64,000 nucleotides of DNA. Source: Candidatus Poseidoniaceae archaeon (GTDB lineage Archaea; Thermoplasmatota; Poseidoniia; Poseidoniales; Poseidoniaceae). How positions within the stretch are numbered: position 1 is the stretch's first letter; the number at the start of each line of letters is the position of its first letter. The position numbers and the translations under genes were made by a program. The notes below the pieces were generated by a model. That model searched no databases, was not told where the DNA came from, and saw nothing but the letters and a program-made list of their open reading frames with translations. The stretch is from the NCBI GenBank assembly GCA_028356125.1, contig JAOMTZ010000003.1, positions 25,557-89,556 on the forward strand, read 5' to 3'. Positions 41,948 to 50,129 of the stretch are shown here, in pieces.

Positions 41948-43666
41948 TTACGGCAACTCTTCGATTTGGCCGCAGGCTTTGCGAAGCAACTCAAGGGCTT
42001 CCTTGTAATCCACTTCTTCGCCTTTAACCAGTTCTTCACCTGCTTTCCATACATTGATTGCAGCGTGACTCCAAGCGCCACCCCTGTCTCTAGCATCTGA
42101 TGAAAACTGCCATTCTTGGCCATTTGATTTACCTGCAGCTACTAGCCAAGCCCAAGAAGCAGCCTGCCCATCAATTCCGTCTTTCTTAGATAGAGCAGAT
42201 TTCTCGGCTTTACCCATACCTTCGACCAACCCCATCATAGTAAGGTCGTGAATCATTCCAACAGGGCCCGAAACCTTTCCTCTCCTATACGGGAATTTTT
42301 GAATAATATCCGCCTTTGCTCTTTGAGACTCAATATCTTTGAGGAATTTTCCGAAAGCACGTTTTTTGTTACATTGAGCAGACCACAAATCATGAGCCTC
42401 CTCTTCTCCAATCCCCATTTCTATCAATCCAGAAAGCCCATGATCTTGCCATAAAGCGGAAAGAACATCGTTACAAGAGGTAGCGGAGATTTCCAACGCA
42501 GTGCCCTCTCTTTCGTGAACCTCCCCCCGTTGAGATATCCTGATTCCAGAACCCGTTGCTGATTGCATTAGACTCAGAGCAAGCCCCTTCTCTGCCGCGG
42601 AGCCATTTAATTCTGTAACAGCCTCATCTGCCGTTGAAAACCATCTCTCTCCAACAACAAATCCTTCATCAATATGGTGTAGGACTGCAACCTTTACTCT
42701 CTTTGAAAGCGAACCTTCGTTCAACGTCAAACCCATCCACGCATCTAGTATTCTATCCAATGCATCTCTTGCACCATCTCTGTTTCCACCTTCTGGATAC
42801 CAAATAGCGTCCGGCTCCATTACAGTGGATAGATTCGGAGGCAGCATTGAAAGAGCAAGGTCATGGATAAACGAGGTCTTACCCTTCGCCTTTTCCAATT
42901 TATCAAAGCCAATAGCAACTTTGCTACCATTGATAAAATTGAGTAACAAATATCCACTCCCAGACATTTCGTTAGCCGATATTTTTTCGACATCTAGACC
43001 TTCAGTTGCCCAAACAGAGCCGATGTTGTTGAAACTAAACCGGGAGCGATCTAACACATCATCTAGCCAACCATCTGGAATATTTGGTTCCGGGCCACTA
43101 CATACGAAACCATTTCTCCAGGAGAAAAAGAAGTATCCTTTGCGAGCGTGATCTTCCCAAGGAAGCATGCGCAATGTAGTCATGTGGTAGTTTTGTAAGC
43201 CCGCTTGGTAAGCAACTTTACCGTCCCCCCTTCTGACATACGATGCCTTTCCGAATGACTGGTGGCTATAATTTCCAACAATCGAAATTTCTTGGTCATG
43301 GGCTGCCATAAGAGAGCCTGCTAGTGCTTTACCAACGTCATCTCCTCGCTTTGCCATCATTCTTTTGGCTAGCCATTTTTTGTCATGCCTTTTACCCAAT
43401 ATTTTCCTTAGGTCAACTAAAGTTTTGGTTACGGGGTCAGTTCGGCCCCATTTGAGTTTTCCAGTCCAAGACATTGCAGGTAGAAGAGTTTCACCTTCTG
43501 CTAGCAAACGATCGAGGTTTTTCCTCAACTTCTTTTGCGTTTCAAGATTGGCCTGTTTCGTACCACGCATACGCATACGCTGGCGCTTTTGCCCAGGAAA
43601 TTCAACCTTAGAAGGTCCTGCCATAGACAGGCCGAGAAGTTGCCCCCTGTTCACTTCTTCGACCAT
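41948..43666 (-). CDS. conserved hypothetical protein (572 aa)
   Basis: Long ORF overlapping the dph5 stop region; no recognised motif. Confidence 0.7.
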   Translation of the reverse strand: MVEEVNRGQLLGLSMAGPSKVEFPGQKRQRMRMRGTKQANLETQKKLRKNLDRLLAEGETLLPAMSWTGKLKWGRTDPVTKTLVDLRKILGKRHDKKWLAKRMMAKRGDDVGKALAGSLMAAHDQEISIVGNYSHQSFGKASYVRRGDGKVAYQAGLQNYHMTTLRMLPWEDHARKGYFFFSWRNGFVCSGPEPNIPDGWLDDVLDRSRFSFNNIGSVWATEGLDVEKISANEMSGSGYLLLNFINGSKVAIGFDKLEKAKGKTSFIHDLALSMLPPNLSTVMEPDAIWYPEGGNRDGARDALDRILDAWMGLTLNEGSLSKRVKVAVLHHIDEGFVVGERWFSTADEAVTELNGSAAEKGLALSLMQSATGSGIRISQRGEVHEREGTALEISATSCNDVLSALWQDHGLSGLIEMGIGEEEAHDLWSAQCNKKRAFGKFLKDIESQRAKADIIQKFPYRRGKVSGPVGMIHDLTMMGLVEGMGKAEKSALSKKDGIDGQAASWAWLVAAGKSNGQEWQFSSDARDRGGAWSHAAINVWKAGEELVKGEEVDYKEALELLRKACGQIEELP

Positions 43667-45606: not shown

Positions 45607-45732
45607 ATGCAGACCAAAGTCAAGTGCCAATGTGGCGCAGAAACCGACGTTTCAGGCGTAACTCCTAGGATTAACGGTGTTGATGTATACTGCACCGTTT
45701 GTGGCACTGTGACAAATCACGACATAGTCTGA
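45607..45732 (+). CDS. 41-aa Zn-ribbon microprotein (absent from the ORF track)
   Basis: My translation: MQTKVKCQCGAETDVSGVTPRINGVDVYCTVCGTVTNHDIV*, with CxC...CxxC. Confidence 0.6.
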   Translation: MQTKVKCQCGAETDVSGVTPRINGVDVYCTVCGTVTNHDIV

Positions 45733-45826
45733 AACTCCTCCCTCTTCACCTTTTGAAGGTGCAACACTCTTATACTCGACGAAATGAAATCCATTCGAGA
45801 CAATAGTCTCTAGGAATGTGAAAATA

Positions 45827-46462
45827 ATGGATGGAAAAATGAAAGGAATGATTATGGCGGGTATGATGGCGCTTAGCCTGATTCTCGGTGCAATGGCAAT
45901 ATTCAGCAACGAATGGCTTACTGAGGAAGAAGATGATGTGACAGATAATTCTGGCCTAAGCAACAAGGTGATGGTTATGGACGCAGGGGATTCTGATACG
46001 TGCGATGCAATGGTGCCGCTGTACGAAGCAATGATGAAAGATGCCACAGTAGAATGTGACGGCGCAGAATTGACACTGACAATCGGAATCTCTGATTTGT
46101 GCGAATCTTTGAAAGACGGAGACGCGGAATCTGATGATATCGATGATTGTGAAGCAGCAGCATCTGCAGGGACAATGGGCCAAATTGGAATGTGGGGAGG
46201 CGTTGTTCTAGCGCTTGTTGCAACTTTGATGATGGTTCTACCAATGGCTGGAGTCGACGCAATGGATGCAATCCCAGAAATGGGCCAGAAGGTAATCTCT
46301 TGGGGAGCTGGAGGACTAATGCTACTAGGTATGGTTCTTTGGTACTTCATGCTACCAGACGGTGATTCATCAATGGGTTCAGGTTTGATTATGGCAGGAG
46401 CTGCTATGTCAATTGCACTTGGATCAACATTGATTGGCCAGTTCATACCAGCAGACGAGTGA
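45827..46462 (+). CDS. 4-TM claudin/PMP22-like membrane protein, copy 1
   Basis: TM1, then W...GL..., four Cys, TM2, TM3, short loop and G-initiated TM4. The gene is well supported; the family call is inferred. Confidence 0.7.
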   Translation: MDGKMKGMIMAGMMALSLILGAMAIFSNEWLTEEEDDVTDNSGLSNKVMVMDAGDSDTCDAMVPLYEAMMKDATVECDGAELTLTIGISDLCESLKDGDAESDDIDDCEAAASAGTMGQIGMWGGVVLALVATLMMVLPMAGVDAMDAIPEMGQKVISWGAGGLMLLGMVLWYFMLPDGDSSMGSGLIMAGAAMSIALGSTLIGQFIPADE

Positions 46463-46502
46463 AATTCACTTAATTGGAAATGAAACACCCTAACGGGATA
46501 TT

Positions 46503-46541
46503 GCCCTCATCAGGAGTTCGCTCCTGGTGAGGGCTTTTTTT
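46503..46541 (+). terminator. intrinsic-type hairpin terminator, copy 1
   Basis: GCCCTCATCAGGAG-TTCG-CTCCTGGTGAGGGC followed by T7. Confidence 0.85.
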
Positions 46542-46680
46542 ATTTGAAAACGTAAAATTGGTTCGACTGTGGACAAATTAGTTAGAAACAGCATTGTTTG
46601 AAGTGTTCATTGGTGTAACAATCATATACCGCTTAAATTAAATTCCAGCAGAGGCAATAGTCTCTAGGAATGTGAAAACA

Positions 46681-47406
46681 ATGGATACAAAGATGAAAGG
46701 AATGATTATGGCTGGCATGATGGCAGTAAGCCTGGTACTAGGAATATTTGGCGTACTTGGAAACGAATGGCTAGACGTTGAAGCAGACGAAGATGACGAC
46801 ATGGGTGGATTTTCAATGTCCTATGGTCTCAATAACTTGGCCGTAACCTATGATTTAACCGAATTTATGGGCGGCATGGCAGAAGGTGAATGTGACGCTA
46901 TGCTAGAAGAAATGGATGAAGATAAGGATGATGGCTTGGAATCAGAATGTAAAGACGATGACACACTATTTGCAACAATGTCTCTTTCAGATATGTGTAG
47001 TGAAGCAGAAGACGATTTAGCTGAAGCTAAGGACGATGATATGAGCGACGAATATATCGAGGAAACAGAAGAATCTAAAGACGATTTATGCGCCACAGCC
47101 ACAGCAGGAACAATGGGAACCGTTGGAATATGGGCAGGCATAGTATGTGCTTTAGTGGCCACTCTTATGTTCGTTCTACCAATGGTCGGAGTCGACGCAA
47201 TGGATGCAATCCCAGATATGGGTAAGATGATCGTAACATGGGGCGCAGGGGCATTAATGCTAATTGGTATGCTACTTTGGTATCTTATGCTACCAGATAC
47301 GGACAGTGAAACTGCTCTAGGGCTGAGTGGATACCTTGCAGGTGCAGCTATGACCATTGGTCTAGGCGCAGCAGCAACTGGACAGTTCATACCAGCAGAC
47401 GAGTGA
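46681..47406 (+). CDS. 4-TM claudin/PMP22-like membrane protein, copy 2
   Basis: Same architecture with a longer acidic loop; ends QFIPADE like the other copies. Confidence 0.7.
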   Translation: MDTKMKGMIMAGMMAVSLVLGIFGVLGNEWLDVEADEDDDMGGFSMSYGLNNLAVTYDLTEFMGGMAEGECDAMLEEMDEDKDDGLESECKDDDTLFATMSLSDMCSEAEDDLAEAKDDDMSDEYIEETEESKDDLCATATAGTMGTVGIWAGIVCALVATLMFVLPMVGVDAMDAIPDMGKMIVTWGAGALMLIGMLLWYLMLPDTDSETALGLSGYLAGAAMTIGLGAAATGQFIPADE

Positions 47407-47446
47407 AATTCACTTAATTGAAAATGAAACACCCTAACGGGATATT

Positions 47447-47485
47447 GCCCTCACCAGGAGTTCGCTCCTGGTGGGGGCTTTTTTT
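47447..47485 (+). terminator. intrinsic-type hairpin terminator, copy 2
   Basis: GCCCTCACCAGGAG-TTCG-CTCCTGGTGGGGC followed by T8. Confidence 0.85.
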
Positions 47486-47619
47486 ATTTGAAATATACAA
47501 TTTGGCCGTGGACAAATTAGTTAGAAAAAGCATTGTTTGAATTGCTCACCGGTGCAACACTGATATACTCGCTAATTTGAAATCCATTTGAGACAATAGT
47601 CTCTAGGAATGTGAAAACA

Positions 47620-48312
47620 ATGGATGGAAAGATGAAAGGAATGATTATGGCGGGCATGATGGCGCTTAGCCTGATTTTGGGAGTAATGGCTGTCTTAGGC
47701 GGCTCTTGGCTGACCTCAGACGAATTTATGGGCGAAGAAATGGATGACGATGACGAAGTAACATACGGCTTGAATGCTTTGAATTTAGTTGTCCCAGACG
47801 CCGACTGCAATGATGACGCGGTGGATGGAATAGAAGAACTCTACGACGGAATGGAAGTAGAATGTGATGGCGATACTATAATCGCCACATGGGCCATGTC
47901 TGACCAGTGTGATTTCTACGGTGATTTGGTTGAAACATACGAAGATATGGGAATGGAAGGCGACGATATAAAAGAAATCACAGATGCTGAAGACGATGCT
48001 TGTGCAGCAGTTACCGCAGGAACCATGGGAACTATCGGAATGTGGGGAGGCGTTGTTCTAGCGCTTGTTGCAACTTTGATGATGGTTCTACCAATGGCTG
48101 GAGTCGACGCAATGGATGCAATCCCAGAAATGGGCCAGAAGGTAATCTCTTGGGGAGCTGGAGGACTAATGCTACTAGGTATGGTTCTTTGGTACTTCAT
48201 GCTACCAGACGGCGACTCGAGCGCAGGAACGACTCTATGGATAGCAGGAGCTGCTATGTCAATTGCACTTGGATCAACATTGATTGGCCAGTTCATACCA
48301 GCAGACGAGTGA
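47620..48312 (+). CDS. 4-TM claudin/PMP22-like membrane protein, copy 3
   Basis: Same architecture; TM2-TM3 and most of TM4 are DNA-identical to copy 1. Confidence 0.7.
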   Translation: MDGKMKGMIMAGMMALSLILGVMAVLGGSWLTSDEFMGEEMDDDDEVTYGLNALNLVVPDADCNDDAVDGIEELYDGMEVECDGDTIIATWAMSDQCDFYGDLVETYEDMGMEGDDIKEITDAEDDACAAVTAGTMGTIGMWGGVVLALVATLMMVLPMAGVDAMDAIPEMGQKVISWGAGGLMLLGMVLWYFMLPDGDSSAGTTLWIAGAAMSIALGSTLIGQFIPADE

Positions 48313-48352
48313 AACTTACTTAATTGGAAATGAAACACCCTAACGGGATATT

Positions 48353-48393
48353 GCCCTCATCAGGAGTTCGCTCTTGGTGGGGGCTTTTTTTTT
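48353..48393 (+). terminator. intrinsic-type hairpin terminator, copy 3
   Basis: GCCCTCATCAGGAG-TTCG-CTCTTGGTGGGGGC followed by T9; changes relative to copy 1 give G-U pairs. Confidence 0.85.
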
Positions 48394-48560
48394 ATTCCAG
48401 AAAGGCCTTCAGCATCTCTTTTAACCCAATTTACAGTAACTGTTATCGTACTCAATAGTATGATTATGAATGAATAAGAAATAATTGCACGAATTATGTT
48501 AATCTTGATTTTGAAAAACAAATCCAAACTCTGAGATAACCTCTCAGTACATCATTCAAG

Positions 48561-48632
48561 CGCCCGTGCCGGGAATCGAACCCGGGTCGAGGCATCGACA
48601 ACGCCTCATGATAACCGCTACACCACACGGGC
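48561..48632 (-). tRNA. tRNA-Asp(GTC), CCA not encoded
   Basis: Minus strand reads GCCCGTGTGGTGTAGCGGTTATCATG-AGGCG-TT-GTC-GA-TGCCT-CGACCCGGGTTCGATTCCCGGCACGGGC-G, with G73 discriminator. Confidence 0.95.
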
Positions 48633-48695: not shown

Positions 48696-50129
48696 GTGGC
48701 CGGCAGAAAAACATCAGCAGAGAAGTCTCGAGAGGATGCAGAAAACGCGGCTGCAGATGATATGTTTGGGGGCGCTTTCGACAGCCTCGAGGGTTTCACA
48801 CCCCCTGTGTTGGAAGAACCGGAGTCTCCCGAATCTCTAGCCGAAATACCAGGCGAGGAATCAATGGACGAGGCAGGTTCAGAAGAATCAGAAACCGATG
48901 ATTCCAAGGTAGATTCAACCGAAGACTCTTTGCAAACCAAAACCCCCTCTGGTCCACCAGGCCCTCCCGGTCCACCTTCAGGGCCACCAAGTGGCCCACC
49001 AACGGGTCCACCAACGGGTCCACCAAGCGGCCCACCTTCAGGCCCTCCCCAGGGGCCACCATCTGGTCCCCCGAGTGGCCCGCCCTCAGGTCCTCCAAGC
49101 GGCCCACCCGGCGCTCCTCCTGCGGATTCAACAACCGAAGGAGAATCCACCACAGAATCGAGTGATGAAGAACCAGAATCCGAGTCAGAAGCAGTTGTTG
49201 GAGACGAAGAACCAGCGGTAATCGAAACTGTAGAAGAGATCGAAAGCCCTGTTGAAGAAACCCCCGAAGTCTCTGCCGAAGAGGCCGATGAAACTCCGGT
49301 AGATCAACCCGAGCCAGAGGCAATTGTCGAACAAGAAGAGGCGGCACCTACGCCCCAGCCAATCCTTCCGAAACCGAGCATTTCCAATCGCGCAGAGGCT
49401 GCAGAAAAAGAAGCAATCATGCTTTCAGGCGAAGTAAACAGTTTGCGAAGCTCCCTGGTAGGAGCAGTAGCGATAATCGAAGAGTTGGAAACACAGCCTA
49501 TGCCGCCAGCAGTATTGGCGGCAGACATCGTTGTTCCCGACCACTTAGTTGCAGACGTTGCTAGATTAGCAAGGCAGTTGGATAGAGAACAATTAGTTAG
49601 AGCCAACATGGGAGCAATTGCAATGCTGCATCCAGGAATGCACGGAGTAATGATTACAACCCGTTCTGGAGTGACGCTTTCCAGACTAAACGAGCGCGGG
49701 CTTGTTGGTGGAAGGCTGGGCCAAGGGGCCCCCGAAGGAGCAACTGCAGACTGGCGAACCCTCGAAGTATTGTTGGCTACGAAATCTCTTGATACCGGGG
49801 GACCTGCTGCATGTATTCACATGATGGGCGCTTACACTACAGCGGTTAGTTGTGAAAAAGACCTAATCCTTTGTACCCCGATAGATGAAGTTGGGAAGAA
49901 AATGTTAGGAAAAATCGTAATCGTAGATCCCGATGAAGCAAACCCAGACGCGTTCCTTAGGCAAACGAATGAAGCCCTAAAACAGGGAGGCATGAAGTGC
50001 GTAGTTATTCGTGGCCATGGAGCCTATTGTGTCGGTTACGACTTGGATGATGCTTGGGCAAATGCGGCAATGCTAGAACATAGTATGCAGATTTCTTTGC
50101 TAGCAAGACAAGCGAATCTCAAGGTTTGA
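48696..50129 (+). CDS. class II aldolase/adducin-like domain fused to a long acidic, Pro-rich N-terminal region
   Basis: (S/T)GPP tetrapeptide repeats and E-rich linker; C-terminal domain has ADWRTL, CIHMMG, IRGHGAYCVG. Confidence 0.75.
   Translation: MAGRKTSAEKSREDAENAAADDMFGGAFDSLEGFTPPVLEEPESPESLAEIPGEESMDEAGSEESETDDSKVDSTEDSLQTKTPSGPPGPPGPPSGPPSGPPTGPPTGPPSGPPSGPPQGPPSGPPSGPPSGPPSGPPGAPPADSTTEGESTTESSDEEPESESEAVVGDEEPAVIETVEEIESPVEETPEVSAEEADETPVDQPEPEAIVEQEEAAPTPQPILPKPSISNRAEAAEKEAIMLSGEVNSLRSSLVGAVAIIEELETQPMPPAVLAADIVVPDHLVADVARLARQLDREQLVRANMGAIAMLHPGMHGVMITTRSGVTLSRLNERGLVGGRLGQGAPEGATADWRTLEVLLATKSLDTGGPAACIHMMGAYTTAVSCEKDLILCTPIDEVGKKMLGKIVIVDPDEANPDAFLRQTNEALKQGGMKCVVIRGHGAYCVGYDLDDAWANAAMLEHSMQISLLARQANLKV

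Follow-up and report, generated by a model that had tools for sequence, protein, structure and literature searches.

The 64,000-nucleotide stretch analysed here (the window) comes from contig C23 of a 1.55 Mb, approximately 65% complete metagenome-assembled genome (MAG) of Marine Group II (MGII) from the archaeal family Poseidoniaceae, and carries between positions 45,758 and 48,632 a tandem array of three paralogous genes beside a tRNA-Asp gene. Their products are small proteins with four transmembrane (TM) segments and a large acidic first loop, which very probably adopt the fold of the claudin superfamily; they likely represent an unannotated, MGII-specific branch of it, distinguished by its extracellular head, its expression cassettes and its location in a variable slot. 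Tetraspans of the claudin type play a central part in animal epithelia, in myelin, at synapses and in the membrane domains of fungi, and as a rule they are regarded as eukaryotic. MGII archaea, uncultured planktonic single cells with an almost unknown cell envelope, belong to the most abundant archaea in surface ocean waters. Literature searches outside subscription journals turned up no account of claudin-like proteins from archaea or other prokaryotes. On balance, we lean towards an explanation in which the array encodes MGII-specific claudin-fold paralogs, carried as cassette genes, that would serve as surface-exposed membrane organisers.

Predicted fold and sequence-level link to claudin models

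Three open reading frames (ORFs) lie head to tail on the forward strand (45818-46462, 46672-47406 and 47611-48312 in the ORF list), which bears out the tandem paralogs proposed in an earlier, sequence-only reading of this DNA. The true starts are likely the ATG codons 9 nt inside the listed frames (45827, 46681 and 47620), because the orthologs begin with MD(G/A)KMKGM. Copy 1 (type A, 45827..46462) encodes 211 aa with the shortest acidic loop (82 aa), copy 2 (type B, 46681..47406), the most divergent of the three, encodes 241 aa with the longest loop (110 aa, 37% Asp+Glu), and copy 3 (type C, 47620..48312) encodes 230 aa. Hydropathy gives four hydrophobic segments per protein, and all the motifs that had been listed for the array are indeed present in the three copies: a Trp at residue 30 (NEWL, NEWL and GSWL), a GL motif at residues 43, 49 and 50 of copies 1, 2 and 3, respectively, four Cys in loop 1 (59/77/92/108 in copy 1, 71/90/106/137 in copy 2 and 63/82/97/128 in copy 3), the acidic loop itself (82-110 aa, 30-37% Asp+Glu, only one to four Lys+Arg), the sequence G..(L/Y/W)..AGAA preceding TM4 and the C-terminus GQFIPADE. 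Copy 2 has a fifth Cys, inside TM2. None of the 46 homologs departs from W30, L51, three of the Cys or the TM2-4 core, and therefore the motif pattern is not a product of chance. The large loop sits between TM1 and TM2, and K4 and K6, the sole basic residues of the N-terminus, precede TM1; the predicted topology places both termini in the cytoplasm and loop 1 outside the cell, where the four conserved Cys would probably staple the head by two disulfides, predicted as C63-C82 and C97-C128 for copy 3. No catalytic motifs were found in the three proteins.

The AlphaFold2 (AF2) model of copy 3 (m0668c5d90f02; predicted local distance difference test, pLDDT, 75.5; predicted TM-score, pTM, 0.60) runs from TM1 through strands, a helix, further strands and a second helix to a long helix that continues into TM2, followed by TM3, a short loop-2 strand and TM4. 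In a Foldseek search of this model against the PDB, 49 of the top 50 matches were claudin-superfamily chains (probability 1.00), including TARP gamma2/5/7/8, GARLH4/LHFPL4, DUOXA1, claudin-3 and GSG1L, with TM-scores on the target mostly of 0.5-0.71 for those targets that consist solely of the claudin-type chain; the odd one out, at rank 45, was an unrelated ribosome recycling factor (probability 0.54). A second, independent AF2 model, of the long-form relative P0158 and built from 18 distant sequences only, has the same architecture. Its claudin-like module shows pLDDT values mostly of 84-96 per 10-residue block (one block 77), and all of its top 50 PDB matches belong to the claudin superfamily (19 matches with E<=1e-3; TM-score up to 0.74). 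Both models thus contain the beta-sheet and four-helix bundle expected of a claudin, as the sequence-only reading had anticipated, and in both the predicted extracellular sheet is composed of loop-1 strands and one loop-2 strand, with Foldseek matches almost only to the claudin superfamily. The BFVD viral fold library, searched as a control, gave nothing significant. Judged from these models, it is highly probable that the proteins form a true claudin-superfamily-fold family.

At the sequence level, the link to claudins runs through relatives of the window proteins. P0179, a tandem double module that is significant against both a window protein and the family profile, exceeds the curated cut-offs of PMP22_Claudin (27.7 bits, cut-off 26.7) and DuoxA (46.4 bits, cut-off 23.3); the contig that encodes it is of Poseidoniaceae origin, its neighbouring genes being 62-87% identical to, and syntenic with, those of the window genome. 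P0179 itself had no match among PDB sequences. A tandem pair in G038, a genome of the same genus, is recognised by the family profile (E 1e-42 to 1e-48), passes the DuoxA model (30.7-30.9 bits) and falls just short of Claudin_2 (27.9 bits, cut-off 29.1), with additional sub-threshold matches to PMP22_Claudin, SUR7 and Clc-like; its core matches map to TM2-TM4 of the profiles. Another protein of this genome (G038:C82; family match E 3e-29) reaches 26.8 bits on PF00822. Moreover, an hhalign comparison of a 36-sequence family profile with a seven-sequence claudin/PMP22/TARP alignment, in which claudin-4 was verified as 7TDM_A and claudin-9 was taken from 6OV2_A, gave a score of 39.4 (E 2.8e-5, probability 74%) with TM2-TM4 in register, and reversed-sequence controls scored 22-25. 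Sequence comparison thus makes homology with the claudin superfamily, rather than convergence, likely, but not firm, because the Pfam link is transitive via paralogs. The tandem pair of family members at G038:C108 (L013/L032) has C-termini rich in Gln and Tyr (...QQQYFQPQQPLYQDQTQYYQKPDPYQQW); such prion-like, low-complexity tails are unusual in archaea.

Probable expression cassettes in a variable slot beside tRNA-Asp

Each copy is framed by its own flanking elements, all on the forward strand. Approximately 50 nt 5' of each ATG lies a promoter-like box of the pattern GGTG(C/T)AACA-N3-(A/T)TATAC (copy 1, 45758..45775, GGTGCAACACTCTTATAC, with the TATA-like core after the conserved GGTGYAACA; copy 2, 46612..46629, GGTGTAACAATCATATAC; copy 3, 47551..47568, GGTGCAACACTGATATAC), and downstream of it a 24-nt leader, CAATAGTCTCTAGGAATGTGAAAA, that is identical in copy 1 (45801..45824), copy 2 (46655..46678) and copy 3 (47594..47617). 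The 3' elements (46479..46541, 47423..47485 and 48329..48393 for copies 1, 2 and 3) consist of a 28-nt 3'UTR segment identical in all three copies, a GC-rich, terminator-type 14-bp hairpin (46503-46534, 47447-47478 and 48353-48384; z -4.2 to -6.3) and a run of seven to nine T, nine in copy 3. The hairpin stems vary by compensatory changes, copy 2 having C-G where copy 1 has U-A. A genome-wide regulon search located box (exact matches), leader and 3' element at the array and nowhere else in this 65%-complete genome. The box recurs 5' of orthologous copies, exactly in L034, L035 and L029 and with one mismatch in L038, and the leader is 100% identical in L034, L035 and L038. Since leader and 28-nt element are kept without any change across organisms whose Trm5 genes have diverged to a synonymous distance (dS) of 0.5-0.6, both are functionally constrained.

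The box may act as a promoter. The notion of independently transcribed units, put forward in the sequence-only reading, is well supported by the box, leader, 3'UTR segment and hairpin with T7-9 found at every copy, and each gene appears to be a self-contained expression cassette. The codon adaptation of the array genes (76th-87th percentile, compared with the 2nd-25th for four neighbour genes tested), calculated with a motif-picked reference set that contained one false 'thermosome' match (a 3,528-aa protein), is a weak proxy that would fit fairly high expression. In an Rfam scan of the locus, the tRNA was the sole match, and the 3' element gave a non-significant hit to atoC (E=0.66). Antisense ORFs over the array (e.g., 45652-46488, minus strand) were taken as by-products of the GA-rich coding strand and rejected.

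The neighbours of the array are housekeeping genes, and the flanking synteny is kept in relatives, with on one side a Cys/Met PLP enzyme, a 572-aa protein, a TP_methylase, Trm5/TYW2 and a Zn-ribbon ORF, and on the other tRNA-Asp, a Pro-rich class II aldolase protein and GSHPx. In the window, the Trm5/TYW2-type methyltransferase gene and a 42-aa Zn-ribbon-like ORF form the upstream border, and tRNA-Asp(GTC) (48560..48632, minus strand), convergent with the array, forms the downstream edge of the slot, so the array does lie on the 3' side of the tRNA, as had been proposed. The content of the slot is A-B-C in the window genome, B-C in L034, B'-A in L035-L037 and B' alone in L038; the congener G066 has one divergent copy, and the congener G100 has one divergent copy and an unrelated secreted protein. 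tRNA-Asp follows the array or single gene in L028, L029, L034-L036, L038 and L053-L055. The unrelated protein of G100 (337 aa; L029 8942-9955, minus strand), with a predicted signal or lipoprotein-type N-terminus, is encoded between the claudin-like gene and tRNA-Asp; the slot therefore accepts other surface genes. In another Poseidoniaceae genus (L030, L031, L056, L057), a short form and a convergent tRNA-Leu(GAG) are 110-300 nt apart, which is a second, independent case of a short form adjoining a tRNA gene.

Within the slot, loop and core have evolved at different rates. Ortholog pairs share 71-85% identity in the loop and 96-98% in the core (copy 1 and L035_g2, 89% overall, 74% in the loop and 98% in the core; copy 2 and L034_g1, 91%), and types A and C are 94-98% identical in the core with loops at only 32-34% (copy 3 and copy 1, 94% in TM2-4 and 34% in the loop). 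Copies 1 and 3 differ by a dS of 0.20 in the core and of 0.59 in TM1, and their loops are saturated; this unevenness indicates gene conversion or recombination; the core of copy 2 stands at dS of about 1 from both. In five ortholog pairs, the ratio of nonsynonymous to synonymous change (omega) ranged from 0.05 to 0.25 in the core and from 0.27 to 0.68 in loop 1. The loop gave no sign of gene-wide positive selection, its omega being below 1 in all five pairs, and the paralog comparisons were saturated at synonymous sites. We propose that array content would change by duplication, deletion, recombination and gene conversion within one slot beside tRNA-Asp. A tRNA-targeted integrative element or genomic island was considered and rejected, as there is no integrase and no att repeat or partial tRNA copy, the GC content of the array (44%) resembles that of the remainder of the window and the synteny is conserved.

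Some genes around the slot deserve a brief description. The 42-aa ORF at 45607-45735 (forward strand), with a CxC...CxxC pattern (MQTKVKCQCG...CTVCG) and no Pfam match, has counterparts of 88-93% identity at this position in two congeners and probably is a real conserved micro-protein at the slot's upstream edge. On the other side, the gene at 48696-50129 (forward strand) encodes a class II aldolase/adducin-head domain (aa 287-467) preceded by an acidic N-terminal part of about 280 aa with a long (P-S/T-G-P-P)n repeat, and is kept at the same locus in relatives (483-491 aa). The 572-aa protein (41948-43666, minus strand) belongs to no Pfam family and is syntenic in relatives (76-78% identity).

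Distribution, proposed function and rival explanations

Each search retrieved approximately 260-280 close homologs (66 representatives at 50% clustering), all of them unannotated and derived from marine metagenomes and Poseidoniaceae MAGs. A narrow profile of close homologs had a match in 48 of 151 sampled Poseidoniales genomes; a broad profile, run on a 401-genome sample of the phylum, matched in 50, of which about 41 were Poseidoniales from both families of the order, with one solid match and a few weak partial ones outside it. The family is essentially confined to Poseidoniales (MGII), which agrees with the earlier idea of an archaeal family expanded at the 3' side of tRNA-Asp. The copy-number survey recommended in that reading shows that most genomes have one copy and that array content varies among relatives.

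Single-copy genomes often carry a 'long form' or a version with additional C-terminal parts that reaches about 600 aa. In the long form, a two-helix N-terminal mini-domain and a disordered Pro/Ala/Met-rich linker precede TM1. The long forms are P0158, P0155, P0142, P0175, P0176, P0177 and P0183 (loci L040-L051), and their mini-domain, SDAQSYYDGLIAQGYxPEQAxxYTQQ(H/Y)(F/Y)PxF, is modelled at pLDDT of about 90 and has no Pfam match. A fourth, distant family member is encoded in the window genome approximately 24 kb upstream of the window (C23:1208-1738, minus strand; L004 2-1822). Its product of more than 600 aa combines an N-terminal claudin-like four-TM module with a cytoplasmic domain, two further TM helices, a coiled coil and PPGMGGMPA repeats, and is kept across the genus.

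We postulate that the array proteins would be non-catalytic, surface-exposed membrane organisers, in which two inserted helices expand the small extracellular sheet into a head that is very acidic. Lateral association of the proteins with themselves or with a partner would depend on the near-invariant TM2-TM4 core, together with the cytoplasmic loop PMAGVDAMDAIPEMGQK and the GQFIPADE tail, much as TM faces act in claudins and TARPs, and the exchangeable heads would build a variable, strongly anionic surface layer. The combination of an invariant TM core, loop and tail with exchangeable, acidic, Cys-stapled heads fits a laterally associating tetraspan organiser. Oligomerisation and the physiological role are what we infer from this combination, and the scaffold or organiser function is a tentative assignment that may well prove wrong. 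The roles in adhesion or as virus receptors that the sequence-only reading had suggested are speculative.

Several results weigh against the interpretation of the array as claudin-fold membrane organisers. Pfam and NCBIfam scans of the three window proteins gave nothing over threshold, their sole claudin-related match being Claudin_3 (E=0.036), limited to TM1 of copy 1; a comparison with claudin Pfam models, proposed at the outset, is thus positive for relatives, which pass the PMP22_Claudin and DuoxA gathering scores, and negative for the three window proteins, which pass none. In hhalign, the narrow profile performed no better than reversed controls, and against PDB sequences it gave only a chance RNase match (E=0.96). 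The classical claudin loop-1 signature, W-x(17-22)-[GN]-L-W-x(2)-C-x(8-10)-C, for which the positions in claudin-4 were checked, is not found in its strict form: no Trp follows GL, and the first Cys comes 13-22 residues past it. Hence, the W...GLW...C...C motif to which the sequence-only reading had appealed does not carry over, as the window proteins lack the W-GLW-C-x(8-10)-C spacing. The Foldseek E-values are modest (1e-4 to 1e-2), and, owing to the inserted helices, the root-mean-square deviation (RMSD) lies mostly between 5 and 10 A; AF2, trained on claudin-fold structures, could also be biased toward this fold for proteins with four TM segments and a large first loop. Finally, no conserved partner or neighbour gene was found at the array or, across genera, beside the long forms, which are surrounded by unrelated housekeeping genes that differ between genera; the word 'system', used earlier, was too strong for paralogs of one protein family without conserved partner genes. 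Some of these observations would be expected of a convergent look-alike, i.e., an unrelated archaeal four-TM family with an independently acquired beta-rich first loop, whose Pfam matches stem from shared transmembrane composition. Such an origin would account for the failure of the window proteins with all claudin models, the hhalign probability of just 74% (control level for the narrow profile), the different Cys pattern and spacing, and weak matches to Trp_oprn_chp, DUF4064 and DUF3611, which are four-TM families of prokaryotes. However, the paralogs match six claudin-clan models, with core matches on TM2-TM4 of each profile, and pass the curated cut-offs of DuoxA and PMP22_Claudin, W30 and GL occupy the positions that they have in claudin-4, the hhalign score clearly exceeds those of the reversed controls, with the three segments TM2-TM4 in register, and two independent models return the same superfamily only. 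We consider convergence rather improbable.

If the proteins are claudin-like, their invariant TM core could, instead of organising the membrane, bind one conserved membrane complex and tune its assembly, trafficking or gating, so that the family would supply auxiliary or chaperone subunits whose different heads give different regulatory properties. The best structural matches (TARPs, GARLH4, DUOXA1) are auxiliary subunits, DuoxA is the best Pfam model for the relatives, and the TM2-4 core and cytoplasmic loop, with omega of 0.05-0.25, are conserved to a degree that suits an interface with a fixed partner. The dominance of TARPs, however, partly reflects the number of AMPA-receptor PDB entries, and a copy number of one to three with matches in about one-third of Poseidoniales genomes would be odd for a core-complex subunit; no conserved partner gene adjoins the array or the long forms. 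A DUOXA-type function was excluded, since no NOX or ferric-reductase (Ferric_reduct) domain was found in 21 Poseidoniales genomes, whereas control genomes gave matches. Taken together, an auxiliary-subunit role seems unlikely. Less likely still, although it could be combined with the scaffold reading, would be a virus-host arms race, in which the acidic heads are targets or decoys for MGII viruses, diversified at a recombination-prone slot beside the tRNA. This would agree with a slot content that differs among very close relatives, with or without the unrelated secreted protein, with the contrast between loop and core identity among orthologs and the loop omega of up to 0.68, with gene conversion and mosaicism between copies and with the repeated adjacency of short forms to tRNA genes (Asp or Leu-GAG). 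Yet loop omega stays below 1 in every pair tested, most species carry one copy only, no integrase, att repeat or compositional anomaly marks the locus, and neither 2.9 million viral contigs nor BFVD contained a homolog. The viral searches thus lend no support to a viral origin of the genes.

We thus continue to lean towards MGII-specific claudin-fold paralogs that would organise the membrane at the cell surface. If well supported, an archaeal claudin-fold family would either push the history of the fold beyond eukaryotes or document an old inter-domain transfer. It would also offer a handle on the MGII cell envelope. The constant-core, variable-head design in a recombining slot provides a tractable case of archaeal surface-protein diversification, and the proteins are small and could be produced for structure determination. 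We may go further and speculate, although this scenario as a whole is unlikely, that MGII carry an anciently diverged true branch of claudin/PMP22/DUOXA proteins that polymerise laterally via the TM core into envelope-organising strands or patches. Swappable, disulfide-stapled acidic heads, exchanged by cassette recombination beside tRNA genes, would then set surface charge, cation binding and contact with viruses or particles, and the paralogs would owe their Pfam matches to common descent, or to an old transfer between MGII and eukaryotes, and not to convergence. If so, eukaryotes would not have invented the tetraspan claudin fold.

Comparison with known tetraspan families

With the claudin/PMP22/EMP/MP20/TARP families (PF00822, PF13903), the archaeal proteins share four TM segments with both termini inside and a loop-1 sheet completed by a loop-2 strand (predicted here), a Trp after TM1 at residue 30 followed about 20 residues on by GL, a loop-1 Cys pair and a Gly-x-x-aromatic lead-in to TM4, and some family members reach the PF00822 gathering score. 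They differ by a loop 1 of two to three times the length, which contains two inserted helices as well as four Cys. In contrast to claudins, their C-C spacing is 18-19 (8-10 in claudins), GLW is absent, and an invariant GQFIPADE C-terminus stands in place of a PDZ-binding tail. The resemblance to prokaryotic four-TM families is weaker: Trp_oprn_chp (PF09534), DUF4064 (PF13273) and DUF3611 (PF12263) gave sub-threshold matches only (E 1e-3 to 6e-2), none of which reaches the curated cut-off, and these families do not share the acidic, Cys-rich loop. Tetraspanins (PF00335) were rejected as relatives, since the large loop here lies between TM1 and TM2 and not between TM3 and TM4, and the proteins contain no CCG and have no Pfam match to this family.

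DUOXA1/2 (PF10204; 7D3E_B, 6WXU_B) come close in other respects, being both the top-scoring Pfam model for divergent members (30-46 bits, cut-off 23.3) and the top Foldseek match of the P0158 model. The last four helices of DUOXA1 are claudin-like, and its extracellular domain, made up of four beta strands together with two alpha helices (PMC7794343), resembles the loop 1 predicted here. DUOXA, however, has a fifth, N-terminal TM helix and a DUOX partner, whereas the window proteins have only four TM segments. A match to the fungal SUR7 model came from one G038 paralog, below threshold (E=0.012); no significant sequence match to SUR7/Fig1 was obtained. Fungal SUR7/PalI and Fig1/Dni1 (PF06687 and relatives) are claudin-superfamily tetraspans that organise plasma-membrane domains in non-junctional, unicellular organisms, and as a functional analogy, a role of the SUR7/PalI type is plausible for the archaeal proteins.

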